DNA of 64,000 bases, taken from Raillietiella orientalis (Eukaryota). Shown piece by piece: positions 6,045 through 64,000 of this stretch (its first letter is position 1; each line of letters opens with the position of its first letter). The stretch is from NCBI GenBank assembly GCA_036172245.1, contig JAYWIR010000009.1:4340001-4404000 (forward strand), given 5' to 3'. The translations under genes and the position numbers were made by a program. Under the pieces are notes generated by a model, which saw nothing but the letters and a program-made list of their open reading frames with translations, made no database searches and had not been told where the DNA came from.

Positions 6045-9000
6045 TCAGTCTGTATTTTTCTTTCCTTCATTTGTTTCCAACTTGATTCCTCCATTGTTTA
6101 ATATTGACTGAATATTTGATAACTGCAATTGCAATAAGACAAAAAAACAAAAGAAAAAATGTTACCTGAGAAGATACATTGGAAGTTGATGTATTGCTTT
6201 TGGAAACCATAATGACTTTCGTCATGGTGTTCCCAGAAGAATTGGTTATTATTTTTGAGGATTGTAAAGCTGTCCCCTAAAGCACTTACTATATTTTGAC
6301 AACTAGCAGCTAAATGCTACCTGAGTTCCACTACTAGCTAATAAAACTAAATTTTTTTGCTGAGCTGATCCTGGTGTCAATACTATTGTTCTTGTTGTTG
6401 ACGAATTACCTTAAGAAATCATTTTAAAACCTTATTTACATCATACTGACTTTGAGATATTATATTTCCAGTTGCAACTAGGTTTGCAGGCTGATTTCGA
6501 TGCTTCAAAACACTTGCAAAAATAGAGGGACCCAAATAACCATAGTCTTTTTTGTATTCTTCATTTAAATCAGGGGGCTGTCTACATGTTTTTAAAACTG
6601 GACTTACAATTTTCTGGAATGATTTTTCAATAGCAAAAAGCTGTCCAATGCATGCTTGTTCACTGACCACTAGTAGCTGCTTAATATGTTCAGAAGCAAT
6701 TTTATCGATCTGACTTACACCTGATCCTTCTATAATTAATTGCAATCTCTCACCTTCATGTTTAAGTCTGGGAATTAAAAATGTCTTAATGATTTCAGCA
6801 CCCATTTCAGCTAGGCCTGTAAAGAGCAACTTCAGTTCTAACACTGGCATATGATTTACTAACCAGCAATGGCACCATAATGTGTTGGTAGAGGAGCCTT
6901 TTCATTAAATAAAGCTTTACTAAATATCCTAGTCACTCTGGTTTGGATATTGTTGGTTGATGTATTAAAGTTTTTGCAGATTTGTGCCATTAATCGTGAA
7001 GCAAAATCCCTTAAGGCCCAATGATTATCTACATCAGGGCGCATACATAGCTGCTTACTAATAATACATGTAATCACAGAGGGAATGATTTCATGTAGCT
7101 AAAAAATTTTTTTGTCTCTTCAGAAAATTACCACACATACATATTTTTCCAAGTACAATGTCTGATTGTCCAAAAGAGCTTTCACCATTCTCATTAAATA
7201 AATCAGCAACGCAAGGTTACTTTGTACAACATTGACTTTCACACCTTCAGCTATGAATGTGCTAAGCCTTGGTAGCATTTGATGCAAACCAGGATCTGAT
7301 GCTAAGCTCTGAAGAGCCTCCTTAAAAGTAATATTAAAAATATGAATGCAAGTATTTTGCTTTAACACTGCACGTACAGCTCTCCTGGATTCATCACTTC
7401 CTACACAAGCTTCTGTAATTTCCTTGTAATACAACTGCTGCTCCACAGATAACTCATGAGTTGCAAGCTGTTTCAACTGCACAGTTTCTACGTTTTTGGC
7501 TTTTTGTGTTTTGCTAAATCATAAATAATAAAACTTCTGTTATGTTAAAAATTTTCTCCTAACCTTGCATTTGCATGTGGAATTTTTTCAGAGCCACATG
7601 GATTTTTAAGTTTGTGACATGGATCAACAGATTCTAACTTCTGAATATCCTTGGTGACTGGTGGAGGATTTTCTGGGATACTTGGCTGTATACCATCAAT
7701 GCTTAACCAATGTGCTATACACAGAAATAAAATAGAGAAAAACAAAAAAGGAACTATACTTTATATTATAACTATACTTAACTTCATATGGATTTGATTC
7801 AAATCACACAACATAAAAACCAAGTTATCCAATTTCCACAAAATAAAACAAAACTATTACACACAGCTATAGAGGATACAATTAACAATACACACAACTG
7901 ATAGTGTATTATTAGTGCATTAATTCAAAAAACATTTCTATGATGAGCATGTATCCCACACTCTAAAAAAAAACTACTAACTAACAAATCTTTAACCTCT
8001 ATAATGATCTTTTGATGCAATCATGGGTACATAGACATTTACATGATCATATTTGCAAAACCACTGGTGACAAAAACTCAAATAGTTTACTTGCCTTGAT
8101 GCTTTTCGTAATATTTTTTCATAATGATCTAAATTAAACAAAGAACTAATAAAAACTAAATTGAATACCTAAAATGCCTCTGAGGCATTGGTATTGCTTA
8201 CCTGAGTGCTTTTAAAGTAAACAAAAGCAAAGAACAAAAACTGAAAAAAAAAAAAAAAAAAAAAAAAATGATTCTGCATATGTTAGGATCTGAAGAAACA
8301 AACAAGGCAATACAAAGTCACAAAAAGACTTACGAACAGATTCAACACTTGAAAGTTCATTTGTAAAAAAATAAAAAACATGAAAAATTGCATATTTATA
8401 CAACCTGCCTACACCACCTTGACAGCATATTTACATTTACGATGGTACAAATTAATGAAATTGCTTAAAAAACGACTGTTATGAAACATTACACATTAAG
8501 AGTCAATAGGAGTTAAGACTATTCTGGTTTCTCACAACTAATGTGGAAGTCTTATGATAAAAGAGGGTCCATGCAATGATCCTGTCAGAATTAATTTTCA
8601 GAATATTTGTGCTTGGTCAACATCATAACAATTTGTTTTTATTCAAATAATTACGAAATTCCTCAGAATATTAATCCCAACAAAGTTTTAGTACTGCTCA
8701 TTTTAGTACTGTACCAATGCAAGATGCAAAACAAAATTACTGGTTAATCTCAGGTTAATTCATAACTTAGAGTTTTGAATAGTAAAAACATCATTTGGAG
8801 ACCAAATAAATCATGAAATAGAATAAAATTTTGAATTCATGTGTTGTATACTTACATTTTAAAACAGTATCTGATGGAATTTTGGGAATATAATTGGCAA
8901 CTATATCAGCTAAATCTAATTCTTGTTCATCTGTAAAAAATATTTCTCTTCCACCACCAGATGCAAATCGGAATGGCACATGAATGTCAGAATAAAATCC

Positions 9001-16147: not shown

Positions 16148-19100
16148 TCATAACATTGCGGATGCTGGTAGAGAACTATGCTTTGGTTTTGCTTTGTTGA
16201 GGAATATTTTGATACAGCCATTGAAATCTGCTGTTACAAAAACGTATCCTCCATAAACTTCTAAAGAATTTGCATCTGACTGAATATTTTCCACTCTTGA
16301 ACGTTCACGTTCAATCTGTTTAAAGATAATATCAGGTTTTGGTGCAAACACAGCAGATGTTACAACAGCATTATGTGCTTTGATACCTTCCCAAAAATAA
16401 TTTAAATCTCTTCTAGCTGAGCTTAGTTTAGGATAATCATAGCGAGTTCTCCACAAATAGACACACTGATTCTCTGAACCACTTATGATATATTTACCAT
16501 CATGGCTAGAAATGCATTAGAATATGGTTGTATAGAATCTAAATACCTAAAGCTGGCTTTGATCTGGCTGCTCAAATTCACATACCCACGTCCTTTATAT
16601 TTGCAAACCAGACTCAGATCTCGTTGGTCATAAAGACGAATTCTGCTATCATTTGTCGTGATTAAAATCTACACGTCATTTATCCACAGAAATGTTTAGT
16701 TTTTCTCACCTTCTCTTCTCCTGGCATTGGTTCAATTCCCGTAATTTTGCGTCCTGAGGAATTCTTACCTCTAGTGGAGCGAACATGTATTTGTGTAAAG
16801 TATTTCAGCTGATCTGTTACATAAAAAACACAGCGTCCATCATAGGAGCCCACAACAGTACTTTTTCCATTCTAGAATGTATCCACTTCACTCAATGCTA
16901 ATGCAAACATCTTACCTGACAAAAATTTACAGCTGTTATTAACTTGCTAGGTCCTTCAAGCTCATTCCACAAGACAACTTTTTTATCAGGGATGTTCCAT
17001 AAGCGTAATTTACCATCCAAAGAGCCACTTACAAAATATCGATCATCCTGAGAAAATGCTACAAATTCATGAGCTGTTTAAAATGATTCAATGACTTACT
17101 TTTGGATGAAAGGCAATTGCAGTAACAAAATCAATATGCTGAAAGCAGCATAAACATTCTTTCCTTGATACATGCCATAATCTAACAGTTTTATCCATCG
17201 ATGAAGACAGTACGAAATAATTCTAAAAACAAAAATTGAAACTGAAATCCAGTCACAGAGCATTCATCTTTTCACTTTACATTAACTATTAGACTTCTTG
17301 GCTAATGAATCTATATCTTCCTGACTAATGTCTAATGAATCTATTTATAATCTAAAGTGAACACTCACTTTGCAATCTTATTACTATTAAAAAGACATGT
17401 TTACTCATGAAACTTGATAATTACTTTGGACCAAGATATATCCAGAACATCAGCTGTGTGCCCACTAAATGCACAAAAGGGTTTAGAAACAAATGGAGCA
17501 CGGTAGTCCACATCTGCAGCCAACAAATCATCAAAAGAATGCTGTGACTGGAGGGACTCTTGAGATGGCGTTGGAGATGCCTGCCATCAAAAATATCACG
17601 AAAAATTACTGTAGTTTTTTACCTTAATATCAGCATTGAATCTCTGACGCATATCTTGAAAATAAATAAATGCATCTTTGAGTACCCAAATGCGGAGAAT
17701 AAGATCTTGACCTGCAGTTGCCAGAAGGCGACCACACACAGAAAATTTCATTGTCCAAACAGGACTAACATGATGATCACTCAAATCCTGCACAAACTGC
17801 AAATTATCAAACTCTAGAGGGCCTTTATGATAACTAGAGGCTTTGACTTTGATGTTTTGCCCAAGATCAGCATGGGAAGCTTCATCTGGCATTTCTGATA
17901 TAGCAGCTTCTTCTTTCTGTTTTTGAGAATGTTCTTTGACTTCATGAGCGATTAGCTTAGCTTTTGTAAAGGTTCTTTCTACTGTACGACCAATCAGCTG
18001 ACTAAGTCGATTTCTATAAGAAAAGTTTATATGTTGCACCTAGTCTGACATGCCCATTTTACATTATAAAGAACGAAATTTTACATCAAAACCTTCTATA
18101 AATCTTTCAAAGATGAACCTAATAATCTTTAAAACTTTCAACAAATAGGAAATCATCAAAAATGTAAGAAATCAACAGTTTACTTTTTCGATTTGAGTTT
18201 TCCACCTTCACTTGTTTCACTCTCTAAAGATGATCTTCTCTGCATGCTTGCATATGTTTCAACAGATTCTCCATCTGATTCTTGTTTGCTGAAGAACACA
18301 TATTGGTTTTAAAAGAAACAAAAGAAGAAGAAAAAATGCTTACTTAAGGTATTCTGATGTTATCTTCATTATATGCAAAGAAAGTGGATTGCAATAGGGT
18401 AAATGATCTTCTGCTACACTAAGAGGAATGCGTTCTCCTGTATCTAAATTCAGAATTGTTAGTTGCTCCAAGATTTCCTTGTAAACATACTTAGGTATTA
18501 CAAACCAACATTAAGTAGAATTACCTTATCATCAAGGAGTCTTCCTGAATTTGTTCTAGTTCGAACAACCATATTCAGCTGTGTGGTGACTTCTGAATCT
18601 TCAGATGGAGCTACTTCCTTTACACACTCTTGACTTTCACTAACTGTATCGATGCTTGCAATTTCTTCCTTCCAGAAAAAAAAAAGGCATAGGTTAGAAA
18701 TGGATGAACAATCTACAAAGTTTACAATCAGGTTACATTTCCAACAAAGTAAAACAAACATAAAGCATTTAGAAAACTTCACTTACACTTTAGAAATAAT
18801 ATCCTATATGAATCACACACAAAAACTAAAAGTATTCAAATATTGACACTTTTAAAGGAAAATACTGAAGGCAGCAATAGCTATGTATGCCAATACAAGT
18901 AGTCAAGACACTTGGAAAAACCAATTTTATTTTACCTAAGCACAATTACATTAAGAAAGCCAACTGCAAACAAATAAAGGCCTGAAACATCTTGCAAATA
19001 CACCTCTAACAGTTACAGTTACTGCAAATTTAATGACAAAGGCATCAGCAAGGAGTATCGATTTCAACATTAAATCGAAAACAACTTATCAAAAGTGAAA

Positions 19101-32300: not shown

Positions 32301-33669
32301 GTATTGTTAGAATGGTAGCTTTTGCAGAGTAACTTTTTTGGGTACTCCAGTTGGAGTATGTAATACGGTCTGATCCGGGAAAACATATCAAATGCTAACA
32401 CGGTACTCACATGAAGAGGTAACAATAGAGACAAGGTGACCAGCATGAAAACGCAACGAAGAATCCTCAGGGCTTTTTAAGTGCACCAACACAGTATACT
32501 GTGGAAATAAAGGAACGAGAGGTGCCATGGAAGTTTGCAAATGATTTTCGTATCTCCAGATACATCAGGTGGAATGGCTTCTCGGCCTTTTGGCAAACAT
32601 AAAGTATAATTTATTCGATTTTAATTCGGTAATGGCGCTTGTTCGATGATGGCAGAAGTTTGGTATTTGCCTTCAGAGTTGTATGAATTTTAGTATGACC
32701 TTTTGAGTGGTTCTTGGTTGAATTTTCCTTTGAGTGTACGCTCTTGTGTTTGCCAAGTCGATTTGGCGAATACATTTGTAGATGATTAAGGAGCAGTAAT
32801 TCGTAAACAAAGTGACTTGTGGATTCAGTTAAAAGTTTTATACAAAGGATGCCTTTCGAATAGCAGTATCCACCTTTGATAATTAAAGACATGGATAAAA
32901 TATTTGCAATAATTACGGCTTCCATGACATGAGACTAAAAGCAGCCGTTTCTGAAGCGACTGTGCATTCTGCTTCTTGAATTTCAAACGCTGTGTAGTCG
33001 AAAATGCTTTGGACCCCCAAATTCCTGCATTACAAGATATAATCGATCAGTTAAATTGATTGGATCAAAATGGAAATTGTGTTCTTTAGAGTATTGTGTT
33101 GACAGCTGAGAAACCGAAGCACCAAATTTTAGTGGGAAAGATTTGAAATATTTTTCGATCATGTTTCCCATAATTCCGTAATTCATGCGAAAGCCCTTTT
33201 TTGAAAAAAAAATACCTGTAGTGCAATTCATTAGTTTTATTCCCTCATTCGGTGTCAAGTATCGAAATTCCATGATTTACTGTTATAACAGAAATTTTCC
33301 TGATTGATTTCTTACAGCCAACTGGGTATTGAAGCGTCTTTCGTTCTTGAGAGATCCTCCAATGCTCAGATATGTGTTAAAAAACTTTTTATTGATTTTA
33401 TTGACGGATGCTCATGCATTTTCTAATGATCATTGGTTGTGTGGCAACTGGTGCGAACTCTTATTTTCATTATTCAGTTTTCTTTAGTAAATGTTCTTGA
33501 GTGAATGAAGATCATATGTGATGGAATTTGTTTCTATACCATGCAGTTTAATGGTGATGACCGACGCATTTCGTTTGTTAACCATTGTTCGTCTTTCAGA
33601 AATAGCATACAGCATATGAACATTGTCACTCCAAAAAGTACCCATTAATACGTTTTCAGACTCTGATGA

Positions 33670-33919
33670 ATGCCTAAGGATCCCTGTAAGATTTATGCAT
33701 GTAACTTACAGAAATGCTTACAAAGTAATCATCATCATCAGAGTGTTAAGAAATTAAAAACTAAATTTGTTTTTAGGGCATCATTTCCAGGAAAATAAGT
33801 GCCTTAAAAGCATTCTTGATTTGAAAAATTGCTGCATGAGATCATTTTACTTGTCTGATACATGCTCAGGCATGTATTCATATAATATTCCTAAAACAGA
33901 GTTTAAAAATAATGAGTGA
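33670..33919 (+). CDS. CMC4: Cx9C motif-containing protein 4 (p8-MTCP1), 65 aa, 2 exons, absent from the ORF track; cistron 1
   Basis: Exons 33670-33724 and 33777-33919 (52-nt GT-AG intron) give MPKDPCKIYACNLQKCLQRHHFQENKCLKSILDLKNCCMRSFYLSDTCSGMYSYNIPKTEFKNNE*. This matches the CMC4 pattern KDPC...AC..QKCLQ.....E.KC......L..CC.......CSG. Confidence 0.88.
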
Positions 33920-34247
33920 TTATAACCCTCCCACACTTCCCTCCCTTCCATCACAAAAATCTCTTGTAGAATTCAAAAAGGGACGTTATTTTTATGATAT
34001 AAAAAAAGAAAGATCTTTGTTTGTTCGTCACCCAAGGCGATGGATGATAGGCCTTTATCTTGCTTCAGCATTGTGTTTTTTATCAGTACCAATCTGTAAT
34101 TACCTTTTTGGCCCATTTCCAAAGATTTTTCATATAAAAGAAGATCGAGAGAAAATTATGCTTCAGCACAAAAAAATTTGTGAAAAAAATCGTGAAATCC
34201 AATTTTTGTCTCAACTTAATGCTGATGGAATCAGTAAAAAGTGCTAG
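33912..34247 (+). CDS. 111-aa predicted single-pass membrane protein of unknown function; cistron 2
   Basis: Intact ATG-TAG ORF that exactly fills the gap between CMC4 and NDUFAF8 and overlaps both. It has one hydrophobic segment, WMIGLYLASALCFLSVPICNYLF, preceded by basic residues. Confidence 0.62.
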   Translation: MSDYNPPTLPSLPSQKSLVEFKKGRYFYDIKKERSLFVRHPRRWMIGLYLASALCFLSVPICNYLFGPFPKIFHIKEDREKIMLQHKKICEKNREIQFLSQLNADGISKKC

Positions 34248-34425
34248 AACGCGGCTGCATTGGTTTTCCAAAGCATTTAGTTCTTGCCACAAAGAGGCTT
34301 CATTATATGGAAAATGTGTTTTGATAAATGACACCAACACAAAAAAAGATGAATGCTTGAAAGAGTTCTTGCTATTAAAGCAATGTTTTCAGAAATCATT
34401 TCTGCAATCCGGATATCGCCCTTAA
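34225..34425 (+). CDS. NDUFAF8: Complex I assembly factor 8-like twin-Cx9C protein, 66 aa; cistron 3
   Basis: MESVKSARTRLHWFSKAFSSCHKEASLYGKCVLINDTNTKKDECLKEFLLLKQCFQK has two Cx9C motifs and the NDUFAF8 pattern V...R.RL..F......C..EA..YG.CV......KD.C.KEF..L..CF. Confidence 0.85.
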   Translation: MESVKSARTRLHWFSKAFSSCHKEASLYGKCVLINDTNTKKDECLKEFLLLKQCFQKSFLQSGYRP

Positions 34426-35612
34426 TGCATAAAGCAACTGATTCTCATTTTCAAATTATAAAGTATTGTATTTATGCTTACATTTTACGAATCTTGTTAA
34501 TCTTATATTCAATGTTTCATGATGCATACTTTGTGCCAAAGTACACTGATATTGATTATGAAGTGTTTCAAGATGCTGCATCTTATATGTATCACAATCA
34601 TTCTCCATATTTGCGTTCTGCATACAGGTACAGCCCATTAGTTGCTTTTCTTTTACTTCCAAATATATGGATGTGTTCTTGTTGGGGAAAGTTAGTATTT
34701 AGTTTCATGGATGTTATGACAGGATACATGATTTATTTGATTCAGCATCAGAAAGGATTTCCAAGTCATCAAGCACTCTCGAGTGCTTTATGTTGGTTAT
34801 TTAATCCTCTTCCAGCAGTTCTGTGTAGTCGTGGTAGCATGGATTCAATAATTTCCTTCTTAATTTTATATAGCATGTATCAGCTATTTAGGCAACCTCT
34901 AATTTCTGGGTTTGTATTTGGTATTGCTATTCATTTCAGACTGTATCCAGTGATTCTTATGTTTGCTTACTTCAATGCATTAAATGAAAAAAGGTTATAT
35001 TGCTTTCCTTATGTGAATCATCAACAGATCTGTTTTTGTATTAGTACAGCCCTGACAGTCATGATGCTTTTCATTTCATGTTATGCTGCATTTGAGGCAC
35101 CTTACGTTGAGGAATCTATTGTTTATCATCTCCATCGTAAAGATATACGCCATAACTTTTCTGTGTTTTTTTATATGTTATATTTAGATTCATGTAATGA
35201 GAAGGCTTTGCTGAATATGTTACTTTTTGTTCCGCAGAGCATAATTATTTTCTTTCTTAGTATGAAATTTGGGTCATTCAAGCACTTAAGCTTGGCATCA
35301 TTTATGATTGTAGCTACATTTGTGAGCTTTAACAAAGTGGTAACTTCGCAGTATTTTCTTTGGTATTTTAGCCTGCTACCTCTAATTATTCCATATTTAA
35401 ACATTCAGTATCTAGGAGGATGCATGTTAATGCTGGTATGGTTTCTTGCACAGGGTTTATGGCTTCTTGCAGCATATTTATTAGAATTTCATGGTATCAA
35501 TACATTTACCCTTATATGGATTTGTTGTTTGCTGTTTTTCATTACAAATGTCACCATACTTGTTATAATATTAAAATTGTATAAGAATGACCCTACAAAA
35601 GTGAAAGAATAA
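34425..35612 (+). CDS. PIGM: GPI mannosyltransferase 1, intronless, 395 aa from ATG 34425; cistron 4
   Basis: KYTDIDYEVFQDAA, SPYLRSAYRYSPL, WLFNPL, SRGSMDS, AIHFRLYPVI, YHLHRKDIRHNFSVFFYMLYL and FNKVVTSQYFLWY, with many TM segments and a C-terminal KxKE ER-retrieval-like tail. Confidence 0.96.
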   Translation: MHKATDSHFQIIKYCIYAYILRILLILYSMFHDAYFVPKYTDIDYEVFQDAASYMYHNHSPYLRSAYRYSPLVAFLLLPNIWMCSCWGKLVFSFMDVMTGYMIYLIQHQKGFPSHQALSSALCWLFNPLPAVLCSRGSMDSIISFLILYSMYQLFRQPLISGFVFGIAIHFRLYPVILMFAYFNALNEKRLYCFPYVNHQQICFCISTALTVMMLFISCYAAFEAPYVEESIVYHLHRKDIRHNFSVFFYMLYLDSCNEKALLNMLLFVPQSIIIFFLSMKFGSFKHLSLASFMIVATFVSFNKVVTSQYFLWYFSLLPLIIPYLNIQYLGGCMLMLVWFLAQGLWLLAAYLLEFHGINTFTLIWICCLLFFITNVTILVIILKLYKNDPTKVKE

Positions 35613-35687
35613 AACTATCTATGAAAGTTTTATTTTAGTATTTATCAAAAGCTAAAAAACTTTTGCCTTTATGCCTTTAATTTATTA

Positions 35688-37261
35688 TTAGTATTTCTCT
35701 TCTCGGAGTCCATGCTTAAGGAACATCATTACAGGAACATGTTTTCCATCAACTTCACGGTACTCCAATATTGCCAGCATACCATCAATGTCCATGGATT
35801 CTCCTAAAGTAGTTATGGTGTACACAATGCAAATTTACATTTTTAATTTCAAGTAATAGGAAAATAAACTGAACTAATTATAGCATATAATTAGTTCCCT
35901 AATTACATAAAGTAAATTACTCAGTAGTAACTTTTAAAATAATACAACTTAAGTCAAATAAATACAAACATATGCTTTTGTTACATTTCCAATGAAGCAG
36001 ATCATCAGTAACTGCCCAAAATGAATCAATTAACTAATCTCTGTGCATTTTCTTTTCACTAATTCAAACTTAACTTCTTGTTTAGATTGCATAAATTTAA
36101 AAGTACCATATGAATACAACCTTGAGCTCAGTGTTCAAGAATGTACTCATTTATTAATGTTTAGTTCTAAGCTGCACCACATGCTTGGTTTTACTTGAAT
36201 ACCTGTAAAAAATTGCAATTCCTTGAATTTCCCTACCAACTCCTTTGCTACTTTATTAACACTATTCTTGAATTTGTCAACTTCTTCAGGTTGCTCCTTT
36301 TGCAAAATTTCCAAAATCCTAAACGTATTAATCATAACACAAAACAATATAAAAATAACGAACTTGTTTGTGTACTCTTTCAAGTACTGGGTGAACGATT
36401 TTTTATCTGGAAATGCGAAGTTTTCTTGAAGTCGCTGATTCAAAACAATATCAACTCCAGACTCAACTACTTCATCAGTGTCGTTGCTGACTTCTTCAGC
36501 AGATGGATTCGCGCCTTCTAGACGAATATCTCCATGTTTTCTATTAATATACTGCACAGATCATTAAATAGTAGTAATTCATTGATACTTCAATTATACT
36601 TTTCCATAGACTTCATATAATACACCATCAACCAACTTCATTTTATATGAATCGGTGAACATTTCATCTCCTTAAAACAAAGATACAGACTTAACAATGT
36701 AAAAAAAAAAAAAAAAACATTAATAAATCAACATTCATAATTAAACTTTTTCAAAAAAATGCAAGCTACATTACGGTGAACCAATAAATTTGGTGCGAGG
36801 TACCGACACTACATAATTTTTCTAAAGAAAAATTTTTATATCTCACTGTGCAGATATTGTTTTTATTCGGAAAGTAATTAAATCTCTGAATATGGAATTT
36901 TCATTACCCTCCAAATTTTCTTGACTTTCTTGAAATTCGACATTTGCTTTTTTTTGCTCGCAAGAAAAAATTCGAAATTATTATCAATGCCATTTAACAG
37001 AATCATATTATAATGAAAAAATTTCAGCATGAAATCAAATGTCAGACAACTTATTTAAAATACGTTGCCATTACTAGTTGGATGATTTCCGTACGTTTGT
37101 TCTGATTCATCACTTACTACGTAAACGGATCTGCACGGTTGCACAACGTAAAACATGACCTCATTTTAAACAAAAACTTAAACGTTTTCGTGCCGTGCAA
37201 AAGATGCTCATGAGAGTATCAACGTATTCTTACCAGTAAAAATATCTTTATAAATCTTCAT
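35688..37261 (-). CDS. TPT1: Translationally controlled tumour protein (TCTP), 5 exons
   Basis: Exons 37261-37234, 36670-36600, 36551-36364, 36318-36203 and 35803-35688 give MKIYKDIFTGDEMFTDSY...GANPSAEE...ESGVDIVLNQRLQE...LQFFTGESMDIDGM...MMFLKHGLREEKY*. Confidence 0.97.
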
Positions 37262-55700: not shown

Positions 55701-57004
55701 TTCATCTTCAAGTCTCGCTCTTAGATTGATCATTTGAGTGTCATCATCTGAATGTCAGTAAAGAGTGATTTGTCGTGCTATTTGCGGTATTGGAAAAGGT
55801 GGAGCAAATCTCAGAAGAAATGGGGCTTCATGAGTGAAAACCCAGGTGTTGTGGTTTTCGTCTGTACATGATTATTCGATTACTCATTTTAAAAACAGAT
55901 ATGGATTGAAAGACTGGAAATCGTTATTTCATTATTGTTTTCCAGTATTCATAACAAATGACATTACTATTGTTGTTCTGATGGAAATTTAATCTGATAT
56001 TCACAGTAATAAGTACCACATGAATCCATTACTGAGTTATATATGTTAGTGGATTTTAATCCAAAGTTTATGTGGGACCCCTGACATTAATGCAATAGCA
56101 ATTGTGGCTGGAACGTAGCAAGAATAATTCCTTTTAAAAATACATATTGTATACTCTAATGGAGTAGTTATCTCGAAAATTTGCTTCATAAAGCGTATCT
56201 TAATTAAGCGAATTCGGATGAAATAAGTAACAAGATTATTTGGATCGTCTGCTGAAGGGAGAAAAAAAAAAATTGTGTAAGGATAGAAAATTCACATCAC
56301 CTGCACGAAAGACTGTCTGGACCGGCAAGTGTCCGATGCAGAGCATGCAAAGAAGATTATTTTATAAGATTTATTCGTTATGCATGGAATACTGTACGTG
56401 ATTGCATTCTTCCACGAGTACGAGCAGAATGCATGCTGGCAGCAGAAAGACTTTTCGAGTGCACTCTTCTGATTCACTCTGCCCACGGGAGTTCTGCAAT
56501 GGTGATTGATCTGATTCTGATCTCATGTCTCTTGAGGATGGACCTGAGGGCATCCGAAAGCGCACGGTATTGGCACTTTAAAGTTCAGTGTCCCTAAGGT
56601 AATGAATAGCGTAGGTCACATAGAACAAGCGTCGATCCGAAGAGGGTTTGCTAAAGAATCTGCCGACGTCTCGCTCGGGACAACCCGATCGAGAGTGACG
56701 CCAAAAGGCAAAACGCAGCAGGGAGTCGACGTTCAACAGGAGCATCGGTGAATTTTCTTTTCTGTGACATCCGGGAAGCGAAGCCTCCCGTCGAGCGCGG
56801 CTCCCAAACTTCACCCTCCAGCATTCTGAAGAGAGCACACACACAGCACCGCCGCCAGACGAGGCAAAGGTTCCAATGCAGTAGACGGGGAGTCACGGAA
56901 CAACGAAGGGACACCCACGAGATCCCCAAAAGTTCACGCAGGCGAACACGGTCACGGCAAGAGGGGTTCGCCATCGCACCTGATCCCAAACCTTCCCTCT
57001 CCAG

Positions 57005-58500
57005 TTGTCCACCCGGATTCATTAGAAAAAGTAATAAAAATACCTTTTTGTGGTGGAACACGCAGTTCTACCACGCATATGGAAAATGCACCGATTGTCG
57101 GTACAGACCGGCGAAGAGGAAGAAGGGAGGACCGAAAACAAAAATGAGCAAACCGAAAAAGGGAGGGAAAGTTTTTTAAGGAGAAGAGGGGACACGGATC
57201 GGGGTAGGCATCACGGTTCTCTGTCAGGCGTCCACTGCATCCTATCCAGATTAGGACTCCAGGCAAGTTAGTTTGTTCCGGATGCTGCCCAAGTGGACCA
57301 TCTCGTCGCGGTCCTCAGAAGGAGTTGCTTCCAGGGAAAGACGTCCATGTTGTCCCCTTCTTGCAGAGTTCCAAGCCGCCACCATCCCGCGAAGACAGCA
57401 GAGAACTGAGAAGGACGCGGATGGCGACAGTGCGGTACGAACGAAGAGGAGTTTGAAGGAGTTCCTGGGCCGCCCACAGGGATTCCAAGAATCGTCTCGA
57501 AATGCTTTCGAAGGAATCGGAGGGCACGACAGTCTAGGGGCAGGTGAGGATGGGTCTCCCTCACCACGCCTCCACCCTCCCCAGGTCCAATGGTGTAGGT
57601 GCGCTAATCATGGGGAATCCCCCATGCAAGACCAGCAATGACAACTTTTGACACCTGAGAAGGAGGGTGCACTTGTCCTGCAACACTGGGGGTCACATGA
57701 AGGATTATCGAGGAACCTCCAGCAGTTCGCCCAAGCGGAGAAGTCCTTCGGGTGGGACACTCAGGGTCGCAGCGTCCGTCGGATGCCGTGCTCTCCCAGA
57801 AGTTTCTTTCTTCCTGCAATGCAGCAGGACACCTCCTACTATGCAGGATGGACGCTGTCCGTTGCTCCCCTTGGAAGGGCAGCGCTGGGTCAAGAAAAGG
57901 GGGGGGAGGCTAACGAAGCCCACAGACGAGCGTATCTGCCGCGCACCACACAAGAAAACTCCGCCCTCGCTGGTGCCGTGGGTCCTCCCTACGCGTCAAC
58001 TGAATTTAGAAATTCAGCTCGCGGGGATGCAGATCTATGAGTCCTCTCTTACCAAGGCAACCTGTTTGACGAAGTCGGCAGCCGCAGAAGGCCAGACTAG
58101 GTCGGTTGGCGGCAAGGACCGAAGTCTTTCTGTTGCAGACGGCTGCTCATTGGCGAGAGAGAGGTGTGCTGGCGCGCAAGGCAGCGTCCACAACTTCACC
58201 ACAAGGGCGAGACGGGTTGCCCATTCCAGGTTTGGTGACCCTCCTCGAGTTTCCATAACGTATGCAAGCGCTCCGAGACTTCCTGGCCAACGCAGCAGCC
58301 TTCACAATCGCGCATTACCTCACGCGGAGGGGCTGTGCAGCGGACGGGAAGTGCCTTCCATCCGCAACGGCTTTCAAATCAACACGGAAGGCATCCTGCA
58401 AAATCTACCCAGCGGTTTCTGAAAGCCGCCACACCCTTTGCCGCAGCACCCTCTGCCCTCAGGGCACAAGATGACAGTAGCCTACCAGCAAGGAGGAGAG
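57005..58500 (-). mobile_element. LINE (L1/Tx1-like) 3' fragment, copy A, strongly decayed
   Basis: Colinear similarity to copy B (cgtccactgcatcctatccag vs tgtcctctgcatcctttccag; acgaagagg; ccatctcgtcgcggtcctca) and a degenerate version of the same terminal motif at 57005-57024. Confidence 0.65.
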
Positions 58501-58619
58501 TTCTGTAAAATTGCAGGAGTCGATAAACTCCTCGAAGGCAGCAGACGAGTGAGTTGGTGAACGCCGCCTCCACTCGTTCCCGGAAGAAGGGACTCCTTCG
58601 GTGGAGCGACTTGCTTGGT

Positions 58620-61490
58620 TTATCACCCGGTCACGCCGGCACGTTTATTATAAAAAATAAACATACATGTGTAGGGCCATCGGCTGTACATTGTCCGAAA
58701 ATGCTCGCAACCTGCCGAGTAACCGGCACGCAAACCGGCGACGGTCGCCTCTTCTGCGGAGGGGGAGGGGACAAACAAAAAATAAGCAAAAAAAGTGTAT
58801 ACAACAATTGGGTGCAGGAGGGTGAGCGAGGGTGTCCTCTGCATCCTTTCCAGGATGCCGACAAGTTCCATCCGAGTATGCCCCAGGCGAGGCCATCTAG
58901 CCGCCGTCCTCATGAAGGGCTGGGCGAAGCAGGTGGCGTCCCGATGGCACCATCCTCCTCCCCTGGCGCAGCTCCAGGTCGCTACATTCCCGCATAAGCA
59001 GCAAAGAGCTGCTGGGGATGCGGCAGGCGGAAGGGCATCGCGCACGAAGAGGCGCTTCGTCATGTCCCTGGGATTGTCTGTCAGTGCACCAAGGGCCGTT
59101 GTGTAAGGCAAGAAAAGGGGCCATAGGGCAACACAGTCTGCTAAGAGGTGCGGGAGGGATTTCCCTTTCCCTACGCATGCAACAGTCCAGTGGGAGCGAG
59201 GGAGGTCTACAGTCCCCCGGGGCGAGTGGGAGCGGCGGAAGGTGCAAGGAACATCCCAGTGCAGCACCACTTCGGGGGGAGGACCCGCTTCAGCGCTGGA
59301 GGCCACTCGAGGCCTTCCTGTGGGATTCTCAGCGGTACACCCCAATGCAATAGTCCTTTCGGCCAAGCACTTGAGGTCGCAGAGTCCGTGAGCTCGCCCG
59401 TGTCCAGCCACCTAATTCTTTCGCCCTTTCTCCGATCTCACATCGGACCCCCCCCTTTGGTCGGATGGTTACTGCCCAGGTTCTCCCTGAGGGAGGGCAG
59501 TGCGGCGGCTAGGAAGGTTCTTTGCGTCCACGCACACGTGGTGGGCTGCAAGATGATGTCCTGCAGCGAGCAGTTGTTTCAGAAAAAGTGCAGCAGTCGC
59601 TGCCGCATCTCCGTGCTCGCTTCGTGGTTCCTGGCTCACGTGCGAACGGACACTTCCGTTCGCGGACCCGCAGAACATCCATCCGTGGCCAGCGTGGCCA
59701 CCCGCCGGAGGTGCAGCCCGCAGCTGGACACGTTGCGTCTGCTCCGCTCCGCCAGGAAAGAAGATGGTCCGGCGAAGCCGGTGGCTCGCTTGACCAGGTA
59801 TGGTGCGGACTCGCACGAGTTCGTGCTCCACATCTTCGTTGCTAGGGCAAGCGTCCTCCACTGGAGCTGCCGCTCCAGGTGTTCCAGCGTCAGAAGACCG
59901 AGGCCTCCGTAGCGACGCGGAGCGCACAAGTCCTCCAGGCCTTCCTGTGCCCCACAGGGCGATTCTGAGGAGGTCCTTCGCCCGCCTTTTGATGCTACAC
60001 GGTGGTGGGCGAACTAAAAGAAGGGGGCAGTAGAGGGGGGTCACAAACGCGTTTCACACCGCGGCTTGTTTCAGCAAGAGAAACTTTCCATTCCGGAACG
60101 GGCCGACCGCCAACTCTGCCTTCTGGAGGCAGCCAGACGAGGCCACCGTCTGAGAAAATTCCCCCAACAGTATACCAAGGTGCTTAAGGTACCGAACCGT
60201 GGGGATCTCCAAGGGAATCCAGTCCAGCTGCAGCAGGACAGCCTCGTCTGCGTAAGCAAGGCAGTCCAGTTGCCCTGCCTACGCCGAACCGACTGTTACC
60301 ATGGTCGATTTCGTCCTGATCACCTCCACTCCTGTCCTGCAGCTGCAGTTTAACAGCTGGAAGAAATCTGAGAGCAGTGACGCTGGGGTGGACATGGGGA
60401 GAAGGTGCAGAAGATCGTCCACATATGCTGACACGGCCGGTGTGCCTGGGCACGCGCGTGGCAGGCGAGCCAGAGTCTTCCTGTACTCCCTCAGCACCAA
60501 CTCGAAGTAGGTGCCGAAGAGCAAGGAGCTCAGACTGTCCCGCCCTGCCGTAACCCGCGACGCATCGGCACACCGTGCGCGTTTCGTCCACTCAAAGAAA
60601 TAGTGATCAGCGCGTCGCGCCTGCAAAGAGCGAAGAAAAACCGCCAAAGAGACCGGGAAGCCTAAGCGTTCCAGAAGCTCCAGAAGAAGTTGCTCCTGGT
60701 CGACGCAGTCGAATGCTTTCTGCAAGTCGACTGCGGCCGCAAGGGTACCTTCTCCTTCCCGCCCATCCCGCCCACCACCGGCGGACGTCCCGGAAATCGG
60801 GGTGCCAATCGTGTTCCCTCCGTTCGCTCTACTCCGCTGGAACTCCAACCATGTGTTCGAGAAGAGTAGGTGGTTGGCGTCCATGCACTCCCCGGGAACA
60901 GAGGAAGTCTGCTCCGGGCTAATGAATCTTTCCGTCACCCGCCCTCATCGCTCCGAGCAAAGTTTCGCCAGCAACTTGGCGTCCGCGCTCAACACGGTGA
61001 TCGAACGCCAGTTGCAGAGGCTCCGTTTAAGTCCCCTCCCTGAGGGTGGAGACGCATCCGTACCGATCGAAGAGAGGCGGGAACCGCCTGTCTCCCAAAT
61101 CAGCAGCGTTAAGCGCTGCCGAGAGAAGTTTGAGCTATCTTGGCTCTCAACTTGGCCGAATAGTTTCGCCTTACTACGGCGAAATCCCTGGGATCTCCGT
61201 CCTCCCAGAGAACTCGCCTACTTGGCTGCAGGAGTCCGTATTTTTGCCTGGGGTAAAATCAACGGCGCGAGCGAGGGGGCAGAGTGCATCTGCCTACGAA
61301 ACAGCAGATGCACTCGTCAGTCGTTGAGGAAGATCCTGGGTAACACCAGGAATCTGCTTTGGGCGTCGTTCATCCTCCTCGCCCCAATGCTGTCCTCCCT
61401 AAGGGGAACCTTCCGGCAAGGCGGAACATCACGAGCACTATCGAAAATAGAAGAAAACATCCGGGTGCGTGGACAACTCGGGAACTGAGA
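58620..61490 (-). mobile_element. LINE (L1/Tx1-like) 5'-truncated, frameshifted ORF2 (RT + CCHC), copy B
   Basis: NWRSITVLSADAKLLAK, ISPEQTSSVPG, AVDLQKAFDCVDQ..L...LERLGFP, DSLSSLLF, VSAYVDDL, CAPRRYGGLGL and KSLPHLLADC, then a T-rich 3'UTR with AATAAA at 58649-58644. Confidence 0.9.
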
Positions 61491-62207
61491 TGCTGCCACC
61501 CCGAGTGTCCCTCTAAAAGGACTGCTACGCTGAGGAGAGCCACTAGAAATTCCTCCGCAGAAGATACAGTGGCCTCCAGCGTGCTGGAACAGTGTAACGC
61601 TCCTGCCCCCTGAAGTGGCAGGAGTCGGCGATCCTTCTGGCAATGGGGTCTCCCGTGCAACGCCCGCCGGCATCACTGTACCCTGGGGAGGAAGTGAGCC
61701 CGAACTGCAGAAGGTGCTGCGAAAGAGAGTCCCTTCCGCACCTGCTCGTGGATTGCGTTGCCTTCCGCCCCGTGGGAACGCTTTGCTGCGTCCCTGTGGA
61801 TCCCCAAGGACAACCTCACAGAGTTCTGAAGCGCCTCTTCCTGCGTGACGCCATCACGCCGACCGCATCCCCAGTGGCACTTTGCTGCCTACGCGGTGGG
61901 ATCGTGACTGCATGAAGCAATGCCAGAGAAGGTCGGGACGACAGGGACTCCATCTCTTGTGCCTATCTCCTATTCGTGAGGATAGCGTCAAGATGGCCCC
62001 ATCTGAGGGTCGTAAAACGGGAACTTGCCGGCATCCTGCATAGGATGCAGAGGACGCCCTCCAGCACCTGGTGATCCCTTCCTGAACCTCCCCATTTTGT
62101 TTCGTGTATATTTTTTTTGTTGTTGTTTCATTTTTCTTTTCGTTCTGCCACTGACCTGTATGTTTATTTTTTATATAAGTGAACGCCCCGGCTCAACCCG
62201 GTGTCAA
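61490..62207 (+). mobile_element. LINE (L1/Tx1-like) 3' fragment, copy C, inverted relative to B
   Basis: NCRRCCERESLPHLLVDC...LKRLFLRDAITPTASPVALCCL...ELAGILHRMQRTPS is homologous to the copy B C-terminus. It shares TGTATGTTTATTTTTTATA and the terminal motif with B. Confidence 0.85.
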
Positions 62208-63252
62208 CCCAGTGACCAGAGCGGTGGCTGCAGAAGTGGGAATCAAGGCGGGAGACACCGAGGTCCGCGGCCGACAACCCAGGACGCTCTCCCGCTTCGG
62301 GGTCGCGAGGCGGCTGCGATGCCAGAAGGAAAAGCGGCGTATCAGGCGACAGCAGCATCCACCCGGTTGATGAGTGGGTGAGGGGGGAGCAGCGAAATTT
62401 TCTGGCGAAAAGAATGAACGGAACGGCGGGAACGTGCTAGGGGCAGGCGGACGGGAGCGCGGGGCTTTCCTGCACGGCGGCAGGAGGGGGAAGTTTTCTA
62501 ATTGGGGTTTGCTCAAACGGTAGCGTTTCTTCCTCCGGATCCACAGAGAACAGAGACTTTTCCGCTTTCCACGAGTCCGTCTGGCTAGAAAGGAGAGGGG
62601 GTCTTGGAGATCGGGAAGAAACAGTGGTCAAAGCAAAAGGAGGAGGGGTGCTTTTTAGACTCCATTGGATCCCCTCCCCATCCGGAGCACAGAGGCCCGC
62701 GAACAGAACCTCCGTAGCGGAGCGCTGCCGTTTCCAGAACGCTAAGTGTTGAGCTGGGCGTGGGTTCCGGAGGAAGAGGCCGCGCAGCTTCCGTGGAACC
62801 GGTGAGCGCGCGCCGGCCGGGAAAGGGAGAGGGATCGAAAAAGGGGGAGGAAAGCGTCCCGGGACGCGGACCGCGGGAGGTGCGGGGAAGGATCGAGCAG
62901 CGAGCGGGACTTCTCCCCTGCCAGGGAATTTCGCGATCCCCCCCAGCTCGACAGACCGAGCGCGCGGATGGGTGGGGGATCCCAGGGAGGCGACGAAAGC
63001 CCCGCGAAGGAAACTTGGACTCTCGACCGCTGATTCCTAGCTGGCGTTCCCGGAGAGAATTCGGGACTTCAGGATCGAATGACAACTCCTGGGAATACAA
63101 AAATGCATCTATTCTTATTCTTATTATTCTTATTGTTATGTTGGGGAGTAATAAATACAACATGACTAGAAAGTTTGCGGATGTGGAAGTGTTCTAAATA
63201 AATGCCATAAATAAATGCCCCGGCATACCCGGTTGTTAAGCCGGAGGTGTTC

Positions 63253-63488
63253 TCACAGCTGCATCAGCACGAGCAGCATGGCTGCCAAGTTTACGCTGCA
63301 CGGAGCCTTGAACGGCGCCGAGTTGCCACCGTGTGGATCCACCATATGTCGGGAATCAGGCGTCCAGCTGCTGCACTTCGGGAACTCGTAAGGGACTGGA
63401 GGCATCTGCTCCCTCCCTCCCACTTGAAAGATGACTGCCATCCCGATCTCCAGGTGGAAATCGATGTGGCAATGGAGCAGCCAGAAGC
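63253..63488 (-). CDS. Last coding exon of a laccase / multicopper oxidase; upstream exons lie beyond the window
   Basis: After a CTGAC branch-like site and a CCAG acceptor: (G)[41 protein letters not shown]...[12 protein letters not shown]. HCHxxxHxxxGM is the L4 copper-binding signature. The hydrophobic tail resembles a GPI/membrane anchor signal. Confidence 0.92.
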
Positions 63489-64000
63489 CTGGAATTTCCG
63501 ACCGTCAGTTGACGCGCGCGCGATCCGCGACGCGCAGCCTGCGCGAAGCAGCAGCGTCTCCGCTGGCTCTTCTTCTTCCCTGCATCCCCGGGCTGGAGGA
63601 AGGGAGGGAACCGAAACGGGAGCTGGAGTCCCACGGACGAAGCGGCGCCGCGTTCACGAACCCAGGAAGCGCCCCGGGTCGAAAGACCGGATCTCCCGCG
63701 TCTTCCTCGGACGAGCGGGGCGTGGTTCCCACATGGGCTGGGTTGGGCTTTCAGCGAACCCCCCTCCAGCTCCACCTTCTCCTGCACCCTTTCCACGGTC
63801 CGCATGCGGTGTCGTGGTCGTCTTCGTTCGTTCTTCCCCCACGCGGACGAATGGTTTCCCCGGTTCACGTTGGGCTTCAGATGACGCGCTTGGGCCCACT
63901 GACGTTCCTTTAAAAATCATTCGGGATTCTTCCCGCAACACGGGGGGGGGGAGGGGAGGAACAAAAAGGCAACCCGATCTTGCAGCCGATTCCGCAAGGA

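Follow-up and report, generated by a model that had tools for sequence, protein, structure and literature searches.

How four open reading frames (ORFs), each overlapping the next, might be expressed together, and whether such an arrangement is peculiar to one lineage, is the question raised by a compact locus of Raillietiella orientalis. The window analyzed here is a 64,000-nt stretch of contig JAYWIR010000009.1, and all coordinates are counted from its first letter. A sequence and ORF check of this window identifies four ORFs that share a strand: first a CMC4-like gene, then ORF2, which encodes a single-pass membrane protein of 111 aa, then ORF3 with a twin-Cx9C motif, and last PIG-M. Taken together, the evidence below makes it probable that the locus is the orthologue of the tetracistronic Drosophila unit CG42381–CG42379–CG42380–CG9865 and that it is read as one mRNA.

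All features lie on the plus strand. The CMC4-like gene (p8MTCP1/CG42381-like) begins with exon 1 at 33670..33724 (18 codons plus 1 nt), which carries the first Cx9C motif. It is followed by a phase 1 intron of 52 nt at 33725..33776 (with a GT donor at 33725-6 and an AG acceptor at 33775-6), the sole intron of the unit, and by exon 2 at 33777..33919, ending in a TGA at 33917-19. ORF2 occupies 33912..34247; its ATG at 33912 (ATGAGTGA) opens an 8-nt stretch common to CMC4, and its TAG stop lies at 34245-47. ORF3, encoding a 66-aa twin-Cx9C protein, runs from 34225 to 34425, overlaps ORF2 by 23 nt, and ends in a TAA (34423-25) that has 1 nt in common with the ATG of PIG-M (TAATG). The intronless PIG-M gene (GPI mannosyltransferase I; 34425..35612) encodes 395 aa and stops at 35610-12, where an AATAAA poly(A) signal (35608..35613) overlaps the stop codon. 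The three junctions thus measure −8, −23, and −1 nt, so that promoters or poly(A) sites would find no space between the genes. The AATAAA is the only canonical one in 33670-35700, with none between the cistrons, and four ATTAAA variants occur in the same interval (33753, 34374, 34979, and 35570). An Rfam search of the window returned no RNA gene. An earlier note on this DNA had given the coordinates and overlaps of the four ORFs, a sole intron within CMC4, and an AATAAA at the very end, and the sequence bears out all of these.

The PIG-M protein matches Pfam family PF05007 (Mannosyl_trans) over profile positions 2-259 of 259 (E 7.5e-62; 210 bits, where the gathering score is 23.4) and has 829 homologues, the best at 43% identity. 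Aligned with 17 homologues, it shows 66 invariant columns, and the length of its N-terminus fits a start at 34425. To look for related loci, metagenome contigs were scanned. The PIG-M protein alone as query gave no match; an alignment (A1) returned 80 loci. A quick version of a PIG-M tree covered those of the 80 loci whose ORF is intact over 340 aa or more, which left out 34. In it the window sequence sits on a long branch (1.35) with no firm position inside a group of arthropods and Octopus.

In seven of the loci, tblastn with the window proteins placed an ORF3-like ORF directly upstream of PIG-M (E <1e-5), with CMC4-like ORFs farther upstream. ORF maps then revealed the gene order of the window in nine loci, seven with all four ORFs and two with three, each carrying a one-transmembrane (one-TM) ORF between the CMC4-like and ORF3-like slots. 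The PIG-M sequences of some of these positive loci group with those of ants, orthopterans, and isopods. In a census of the 50 loci that extend 300 nt or more upstream, 9 were positive, and among the 40 that extend 800 nt or more, 7 have all three upstream ORFs; no further positives come from this census, as its profiles were derived from those same nine loci. The four-ORF unit is absent from the other 41 of the 50, including a GC-rich set (L001, L005, L007, and L016) whose PIG-M groups beside that of crustacean-like positive loci. Among the positives, three contigs of 1.9–2.6 kb (L061, L010, and L014) each carry four ORFs with an uninterrupted CMC4; the shortest, L061, is a 1922-nt contig in which this CMC4 ORF is followed by the other three. 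Gaps in these compact loci are short (−1, −1, and 24 nt in L061; 15, 2, and −4 nt in L010), and the genomic-type loci L015, L022, and L024 have spacers of 219–882 nt.

For the small ORFs, profiles built from other organisms, excluding the window, were run over the complete set of 1229 stop-to-stop ORFs (30 aa or longer) in the window. Together with the PIG-M match, their scores take the arrangement beyond chance. Against a profile of three full-length CMC4 relatives from other loci, exon 1 scored E 4.3e-9 and exon 2 E 3.3e-9. Each half matched PF08991 (CMC4) and no other Pfam family: with each exon half scored alone, exon 1 aligned to profile positions 1-21 (E 1.5e-4, 22.4 bits) and exon 2 to positions 16-38 (E 1.5e-3, 19.3 bits), against a cut-off of 28.9. 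The spliced protein is 52–54% identical by tblastn to its counterparts in L010 and L014. The sole PDB match of exon 2, a weak one (E 1.9), is 1hp8, Cx9C motif-containing protein 4. The position and phase of the intron (after C-L-[QK] plus 1 nt) are identical in the genomic-type loci L017, L022, and L024, and L015 has a matching acceptor.

ORF3 contains the cysteine pairs C21-x9-C31 and C44-x9-C54, and none of the four cysteines varies among the 10 family members, whose alignment has 10 invariant columns in total. Its score against the profile from other loci is E 4.1e-19 among the 1229 window ORFs, and in the ESM Atlas it matches Cx9C intermembrane-space clusters (score 0.93). Every one of the ten family members matches PF16860 (CX9C), and the dN/dS of the family is 0.06. 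Of its two in-frame ATGs, at 34219 and 34225, the latter is favored as the start because all nine homologues begin with M-[ED]-[SA]-V. A word-index search gave no homologue of ORF3, and single-sequence and profile searches of the PDB gave generic CHCH proteins (NDUFA8, NDUFS5, and CHCHD5; E 0.017 or worse), with no NDUFAF8 among them. ORF3 is a clear orthologue of the Drosophila 'group 8' ORF, uORF3/CG42380. Group 8 may correspond to NDUFAF8 (C17orf89), the name that the earlier note gave to ORF3; the database matches themselves say twin-Cx9C/PF16860 only. In length and motif, ORF3 fits the NDUFAF8 type (about 70 aa, twin Cx9C). The first 19 aa of human NDUFAF8, described as a weak positively charged targeting stretch, contain four Arg and no acidic residue, and in human cells the protein has been shown to act with NDUFAF5 (PMC10174193). 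Among its first 20 residues, ORF3 has four basic ones (K5, R8, R10, and K16) and one acidic one (E2), a charge pattern that is alike but not identical. The three small proteins of the unit may be mitochondrial.

Is the arrangement new? The earlier note had read the four cistrons as one unit and had added, with a hedge, that Drosophila PIG-M also belongs to a multicistronic locus, in which case the unit would be an ancient arthropod polycistron rather than a lineage novelty. Both readings are supported. Hayden & Bosco (2008) described three conserved peptide uORFs on the transcript of Drosophila CG9865, which is PIG-M: in FBtr0071680, uORF1 (65 aa) is a twin-CX9C homologue of p8MTCP1, uORF2 has 84 aa, and uORF3 (76 aa) is a twin-CX9C homologue of plant group 8 (PMC2276209). 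In arthropods, the uORF of group 8 had been reported ahead of a putative mannosyl transferase (PMC2075485). FlyBase curates CG42381, CG42379, CG42380, and CG9865 as sharing polycistronic transcripts only ('all di/polycistronic'); the distances between them are −1, 8, and 22 nt (Crosby et al. 2015, PMC4528330 supplement). The four-gene unit was therefore already known in the fly, and the window locus is no lineage novelty. Products, order, and strand are the same in fly and window: ORFs 1 and 3 encode twin-Cx9C proteins, ORF2 a small one-TM protein, and the last ORF PIG-M. By eye, the window peptides also resemble those of the fly (PMC2276209 supplement): in both, ORF1 starts K-D-P-C-K and contains C-S-G, ORF3 starts M-E-S-V, and R-x-P-R precedes the TM helix of ORF2.

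There are differences as well. All three junctions overlap in the window, unlike those of the fly, and ORF2 has 111 aa with a charged C-terminal tail as opposed to 84 aa. The window CMC4 ORF has an intron, whereas for the fly 'no introns' is stated for the group-8 ORF alone (PMC2075485). The fly unit is backed by transcript evidence and the window unit is known from its genes, and we infer from orthology that a single mRNA is made in this species too. The earlier reading of the four cistrons as one unit is supported by both the FlyBase listing and the nine environmental contigs, in which the order recurs. An EST-based study traced uORF1 within Sophophora only and uORF2 within Diptera only (PMC2276209). 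The environmental loci extend this record, as the whole four-ORF order, beyond the Cx9C–PIG-M pair, is kept in ant-, orthopteran-, and isopod-like lineages. FlyBase release 6.04 is reported to hold two tetracistronic loci (PMC4528330), and the window provides a clean non-Drosophila example of what is a very rare type of protein-coding unit in animals. Annotation pipelines that assume one coding sequence per mRNA would miss three genes at this locus. The accessible text of a Tribolium small-ORF study (PMC13670568) makes no mention of the CMC4/PIG-M locus, and a full-text literature search, with most subscription journals outside its scope, did not find 'PIG-M' together with 'polycistronic'.

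The second cistron, in the slot of fly CG42379/uORF2, is the one that the earlier note had called an orphan. By position that label does not fit: the same slot holds a start-to-stop one-TM ORF in all nine related loci and in the fly. By sequence, the match to this one-TM family is weak. Its family profile ranks ORF2 at the top of the 1229 window ORFs (E 0.078), narrowly ahead of an unrelated ORF at 0.086, and hhalign of ORF2 against the family gives a probability of 65% (E 6e-5). The predicted TM helix corresponds to the most hydrophobic 19-mer (residues 44-62, mean Kyte-Doolittle 1.89), and ORF2 and its slot relatives have in common an R-x-P just before the helix and an S near its end. These figures leave some room for ORF2 being an accidental frame or what is left of a decayed gene, which would make the unit effectively tricistronic, with a 300-nt spacer after CMC4. 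Such an account would fit the absence of a Pfam family at a meaningful level for any of the 10 family members, of a homologue in a word-index search, and of a true relative in a phmmer search of 1.84 billion representatives. The only phmmer match, P0121, is a 1043-aa tandem-repeat product matched in 11 stretches, and was set aside as spurious. The ESM Atlas gave an uninformative best score of 0.89 to unnamed bacterial clusters, and the recognition score of ORF2 (2221) falls below the level of 2300 that 91 of 100 proteins of known families reach; ORF2 is also longer than its nine relatives (61–89 aa). Against this, besides the occupied slot and the common motifs, ORF2 keeps an open frame over 135 codons at a GC content of 33%, its ATG has the best start context of the four ORFs (A at −3), and the family shows purifying selection in two species pairs (dN/dS of 0.25 for L061/L062 and 0.15 for L010/L014). 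We therefore consider a chance or decayed ORF2 quite unlikely. As judged from these comparisons, the slot is occupied by a fast-evolving one-TM family under purifying selection, with neither a Pfam model nor an assigned function. A possible likeness of its TM-helix motif to SMIM20/MITRAC7 was dropped, as no result supported it.

Expression of the unit would start with a single Pol II transcript initiated shortly upstream of 33670. Removal of the 52-nt intron and polyadenylation just past the AATAAA at 35608 would yield an mRNA of ~2 kb with four ORFs, of which the first, CMC4, would be read by cap-dependent scanning. With T at −3 and C at +4, the context of its AUG is weak, and a share of the ribosomes may scan past it. 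Plain leaky scanning as a route to PIG-M was rejected: the spliced RNA has 20 ATGs before that of PIG-M (12.5 ± 3.3 in shuffles, hence no depletion), and leaky scanning cannot pass that many. Ribosomes would get to the later ORFs mainly by termination-reinitiation where stop and start overlap (ATGAGTGA, the 23-nt overlap, and TAATG). The output of PIG-M, a low-abundance ER enzyme, would then be fixed at a small share of that of the three small proteins. Eukaryotic reinitiation after ORFs of 65–111 codons is generally inefficient, and other routes are thus possible, such as an IRES, internal promoters, or alternative splicing. With their recurrent TAATG/ATGA junctions, these loci lend themselves to the study of how termination-reinitiation works after long upstream ORFs.

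Internal promoters or alternative splicing could go further, in that the packed ORFs would be expressed from several RNAs and the four-cistron RNA would be minor or absent. The PIG-M frame is open from 34353, and a splice 33724|34393, from the CMC4 donor at 33725 to an AG at 34391-2, would join an 18-residue CMC4 head and an 11-residue linker in frame to PIG-M; an in-frame junction of this kind has a one-in-three chance of arising by accident, and it has no counterpart in the other loci examined. In L062, unrelated sequence is joined exactly at the start of CMC4 exon 2, in the place of the exon 1 found in the closely related L061; an alternative first exon is one possible explanation, and a chimeric assembly of L062 is another. 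The long spacers of L015, L022, and L024 could house promoters, and many polycistronic FlyBase loci are reported to have monocistronic isoforms too (PMC4528330). The fly locus itself is not among these, being listed as 'all di/polycistronic'. Furthermore, the window has three overlapping junctions and no canonical AATAAA before 35608, and L061, L010, and L014 fit four ORFs on their short contigs. Expression from several RNAs is therefore unlikely, and we favor the single four-cistron mRNA.

A different way to read this mRNA is that the three upstream ORFs are mainly cis-regulatory uORFs that throttle PIG-M, with peptides that have no function of their own. The fly ORFs were indeed first described as conserved peptide uORFs (PMC2276209), and twenty upstream ATGs must strongly lower initiation at PIG-M. 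The CMC4 and group-8 families, however, are reported to occur in vertebrates and fungi as small genes that stand alone (PMC2075485), and human NDUFAF8 has a protein-level role with NDUFAF5 (PMC10174193). The strong amino acid conservation, with its low dN/dS in the ORF3 family and four invariant Cys, also speaks against dispensable peptides, making a purely regulatory role very improbable. Regulation is compatible with the tetracistronic reading, as the ORFs can be genes and attenuators together.

Human PYURF–PIGY is a bicistronic mRNA that, like the one presumed for the window, places a small mitochondrial protein upstream of a gene for GPI-anchor biosynthesis. It has two cistrons, in vertebrates, as opposed to four in the window; PYURF is unrelated to the window proteins and has no Cx9C motif, and PIG-Y is a GPI-GnT subunit rather than the mannosyltransferase PIG-M. 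NDUFAF5 is reported to be stabilized by PYURF and also by NDUFAF8, each of which cooperates with it (PMC10174193). One may speculate that the coupling of an NDUFAF5 partner to a GPI gene on one mRNA arose twice independently (NDUFAF8-like/PIG-M in arthropods and PYURF/PIGY in vertebrates), and that this is no coincidence and reflects a functional link. We regard this as a long shot, and the parallel with PYURF–PIGY as a lead, not a result. If true, it would point to an unrecognized connection between early complex I (Q-module) maturation and GPI-anchor synthesis, with translation at a fixed ratio through the stop-start overlaps, and the conserved one-TM ORF2 could be a further mitochondrial or ER player in this link. 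Eight papers that mention at least three of PYURF, NDUFAF8, PIGY, and PIGM were, judging by titles and the openings of abstracts, gene lists only, with most subscription journals outside the scope of the search.

Two further parallels involve single components of the unit. In plant CPuORF group 8, and with the nematode group-8 uORF, the same small twin-Cx9C ORF, of CHCH type, precedes a larger ORF on a common transcript, as proposed for the window (PMC2075485). The downstream ORF is Mic1-like in plants and encodes an unknown protein in nematodes, and neither unit contains CMC4 or ORF2; three independent transcriptional fusions were inferred for the group-8 uORF units (Hayden & Jorgensen 2007, PMC2075485). 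At the human MTCP1/CMC4 locus, CMC4/p8 is carried on a transcript with an unrelated ORF, again as in the window (cited in PMC2276209). Its partner there is p13MTCP1 rather than PIG-M, and this mammalian arrangement has a different origin.

Four same-strand ORFs, coding for a CMC4-like protein, a one-TM protein (ORF2), a twin-Cx9C protein (ORF3) and PIG-M, follow one another on the plus strand. Reading 33000–36200 and listing its ORFs under the standard code matches the four-ORF anatomy of an earlier note base for base. CMC4-like exon 1 (33670–33724, ATG at 33670) is followed by a 52-nt, phase 1 GT..AG intron (33725–33776) and by exon 2, which runs from 33777 to the TGA at 33917–33919. ORF2 (111 aa) runs from the ATG at 33912, within ATGAGTGA, to the TAG at 34245–34247. 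For ORF3 there are two in-frame ATGs (34219 and 34225), and its stop is the TAA at 34423–34425, the last A of which is used by the ATG of PIG-M (TAATG; 34425–35612). The junctions, in order, are −8, −23 and −1 nt, so every ORF overlaps the next, as had been claimed. The AATAAA poly(A) signal placed by the same note at the very end of the unit (35608–35613) overlaps the PIG-M stop and is the sole canonical copy within 33670–35700, where four ATTAAA variants all lie within the intron or coding sequence. A mini-ORF of three codons (ATGAATGCCTAA, 33666–33677) has its ATG 4 bases 5′ of the CMC4 ATG and overlaps the CMC4 start.

PIG-M covers the whole Pfam profile PF05007 (E 7.5e-62) and has 829 database relatives, with a best identity of 43%. 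The two CMC4 exon halves match PF08991 only, in consecutive parts of the profile, each half alone scoring below the gathering score. ORF3 is a 66-aa protein whose top Pfam match is PF16860 (CX9C, E 0.0014), and in the Atlas it falls with Cx9C intermembrane-space clusters (0.93). Profiles built from other loci only, when run over the window's full set of 1229 ORFs of at least 30 aa, recover the CMC4 exons at E 3.3e-9 and 4.3e-9 and ORF3 at E 4.1e-19. The twin Cx9C, size and basic N-terminus of the predicted ORF3 protein would fit NDUFAF8 as Peker et al. 2023 (PMC10174193) describe it.

The earlier suggestion that Drosophila PIG-M also lies in a multicistronic locus is borne out by two papers. 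Hayden and Bosco 2008 (PMC2276209) reported that the Drosophila CG9865 transcript, the main ORF of which encodes a putative mannosyl transferase, carries three conserved peptide uORFs: uORF1 is a twin-CX9C homologue of p8MTCP1, uORF2 has 84 aa, and uORF3 is a twin-CX9C protein that represents plant uORF 'group 8' in the fly. ESTs available at the time allowed them to be followed across Sophophora (uORF1), Diptera (uORF2) and Neoptera (uORF3). Crosby et al. 2015 (PMC4528330) put the number of tetracistronic loci in FlyBase release 6.04 at two; in supplement file 2, CG42381, CG42379, CG42380 and CG9865 share one transcript span, all four are flagged as polycistronic and 'all di/polycistronic', and the junctions are listed as 'OVERLAP 1 nt', 8 nt and 22 nt. 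Hayden and Jorgensen 2007 (PMC2075485) had already placed the group-8 CHCH ORF upstream of a mannosyl transferase in arthropods; in plants and nematodes it precedes other ORFs, and in vertebrates and fungi it stands alone. Compared by eye with the fly peptides in the 2008 supplement, the window shares the ORF1 start and C-S-G, the R-x-P-R just before the ORF2 helix, and the M-E-S-V start and both Cx9C pairs of ORF3. By order, content and junction style, the window locus is a member of the fly CG42381–CG42379–CG42380–CG9865 unit, and it would work in the same way. The arrangement is already in print, and the first reading of the locus is supported, its observation being confirmed.

The same order recurs in metagenome contigs encoding a PIG-M relative. 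A first metagenome scan with a single PIG-M protein as query gave no match, while a second, with an alignment of PIG-M relatives (A1), matched 582 stretches, 308 of which encode a relative; the best 80 of these 308 were analysed. Among these 80, tblastn with the window's small proteins places an ORF3-like sequence immediately 5′ of PIG-M, in the same orientation, in seven loci (E 8e-13 to 1.5e-6), with CMC4-like sequence further upstream, and ORF maps extend the arrangement to nine (L008, L010, L014, L015, L017, L022, L024, L061 and L062). A census of the same 80 finds a Cx9C ORF in 9/50 loci whose upstream sequence reaches 300 nt and all three small ORFs in 7/40 where it reaches 800 nt; because its profiles were built from the nine positive loci themselves, its result is that the other loci lack the arrangement, and it adds no positives. 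The tBLASTn comparison of order and overlap suggested earlier, run here on metagenome loci and extended by the ORF maps, finds the order repeated in nine loci, and overlaps or tiny gaps in the compact ones (ORF2 and ORF3 meet at TAATG in L061 and L062, ORF3 and PIG-M at ATGA in L010). Junctions in three genomic-type loci measure 219–882 nt.

ORF2 has one hydrophobic helix (residues 44–62). It was called an orphan, which holds in that no Pfam family matches it and no word-index relative was found, but not for its slot, which is filled by a 61–89-aa one-TM ORF in 9/9 positive loci (ORF maps). The sole phmmer match to ORF2 among 1.84 billion representatives is a tandem-repeat product and was rejected as spurious. 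Against the ORF2 profile, window ORF2 ranks first of 1229 ORFs, but at E 0.078 with the runner-up at 0.086; hhalign against the nine others gives a probability of 65% (E 6e-5), with the R-x-P motif and helix aligned. The case for its putative place in this family is made by its position, its topology and one short motif, not by a solid score. That the family does code for protein is shown by dN/dS values of 0.25 (L061/L062) and 0.15 (L010/L014); for ORF3 and PIG-M, the L061/L062 values are 0.05–0.06.

In a quick maximum-likelihood tree of PIG-M (65 rows; 34 loci without an intact ORF left out), L017 groups with the ant Harpegnathos (support 100), L022 with the orthopteran Anabrus (98), L010 and L014 within that insect group (95), and L061 and L062 with the isopod Armadillidium (93). 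Window PIG-M forms a long branch within a group of arthropods and Octopus; the sequence is that of an animal, most probably an arthropod. A GC-rich clade (L001, L005, L007 and L016) adjoins the crustacean-like positive loci and has no Cx9C ORF in the 551–4000 nt upstream, so the unit was lost or dispersed in some lineages.

In codon and phase, the CMC4 intron of the window matches that of the genomic-type loci L017, L022 and L024. The short contigs L061, L010 and L014 have an uninterrupted CMC4 ORF followed by all three other ORFs, as would be expected of a spliced four-cistron mRNA; intron loss may be the cause instead. Contigs L061 and L062 (L061:1–140 vs L062:1–110) are ~85% identical from CMC4 exon 2 on and wholly different upstream of the exon-2 boundary, where L061 carries CMC4 exon 1 and L062 unrelated sequence not ending in AG; this may come from the use of another first exon, from a leader or from a chimeric assembly. 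In the ant-like locus (L017:3886–3956), the 69-nt Cx9C–PIG-M spacer holds a small-intron-like GTGAGT...TTTAG.

We favour a single mRNA that would carry all four ORFs in the window species, with the CMC4-like ORF probably read by scanning and the later ones reached by termination–reinitiation at the overlapping junctions. Leaky scanning alone is ruled out as a route to PIG-M by the 20 ATGs that precede its own in the spliced RNA (12.5 ± 3.3 in shuffles). The −3 base is T at the CMC4 and PIG-M ATGs and A at the ORF2 ATG. Reinitiation is usually poor after ORFs as long as these. For such loci, FlyBase considers an IRES and resumed scanning both possible (PMC4528330). Splicing from 33725 to the AG at 34391–34392, raised earlier as a route to a PIG-M mRNA, is in frame with PIG-M and is thus a live rival to the single four-ORF mRNA for a minority isoform.

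In humans, one mRNA encodes both PYURF and the GPI gene PIGY. NDUFAF5 works together with NDUFAF8 as well as with PYURF (PMC10174193), so partners of one complex-I assembly enzyme would be linked to GPI-synthesis genes by two unrelated arrangements. A full-text literature search found no discussion of this parallel, and it is unlikely that the coupling is more than coincidence.

On the minus strand, a TCTP (translationally controlled tumour protein) gene (35688–36560), two exon pieces of which match PF00838 (E 6e-22 and 3e-5), runs towards PIG-M, and just 75 nt separate the end of its final coding exon (35688) from the PIG-M stop. Since an AATAAA on the minus strand (plus-strand TTTATT, ~35629–35634) sits between these stops, TCTP and PIG-M must have 3′ ends that abut or overlap. 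TAF6 exons (PF07571, E 1e-29) and those of a WD40-repeat gene (6419–7518 and 16148–18039, minus strand) are set apart by long AT-rich introns; compared with these intron-rich neighbours, the PIG-M unit is compact and nearly intronless. GC content jumps from ~33% to 51–59% over the last 8 kb (56000–64000), where many long ORFs lie on both strands, including a reverse-transcriptase-like one (60279–60944, minus strand) whose PF00078 match (E 5e-5) falls short of the gathering score; the stretch may be a GC-rich block of retroelements or may result from an assembly join. There are smaller islands of high GC at ~12–14 kb and ~30–32 kb.
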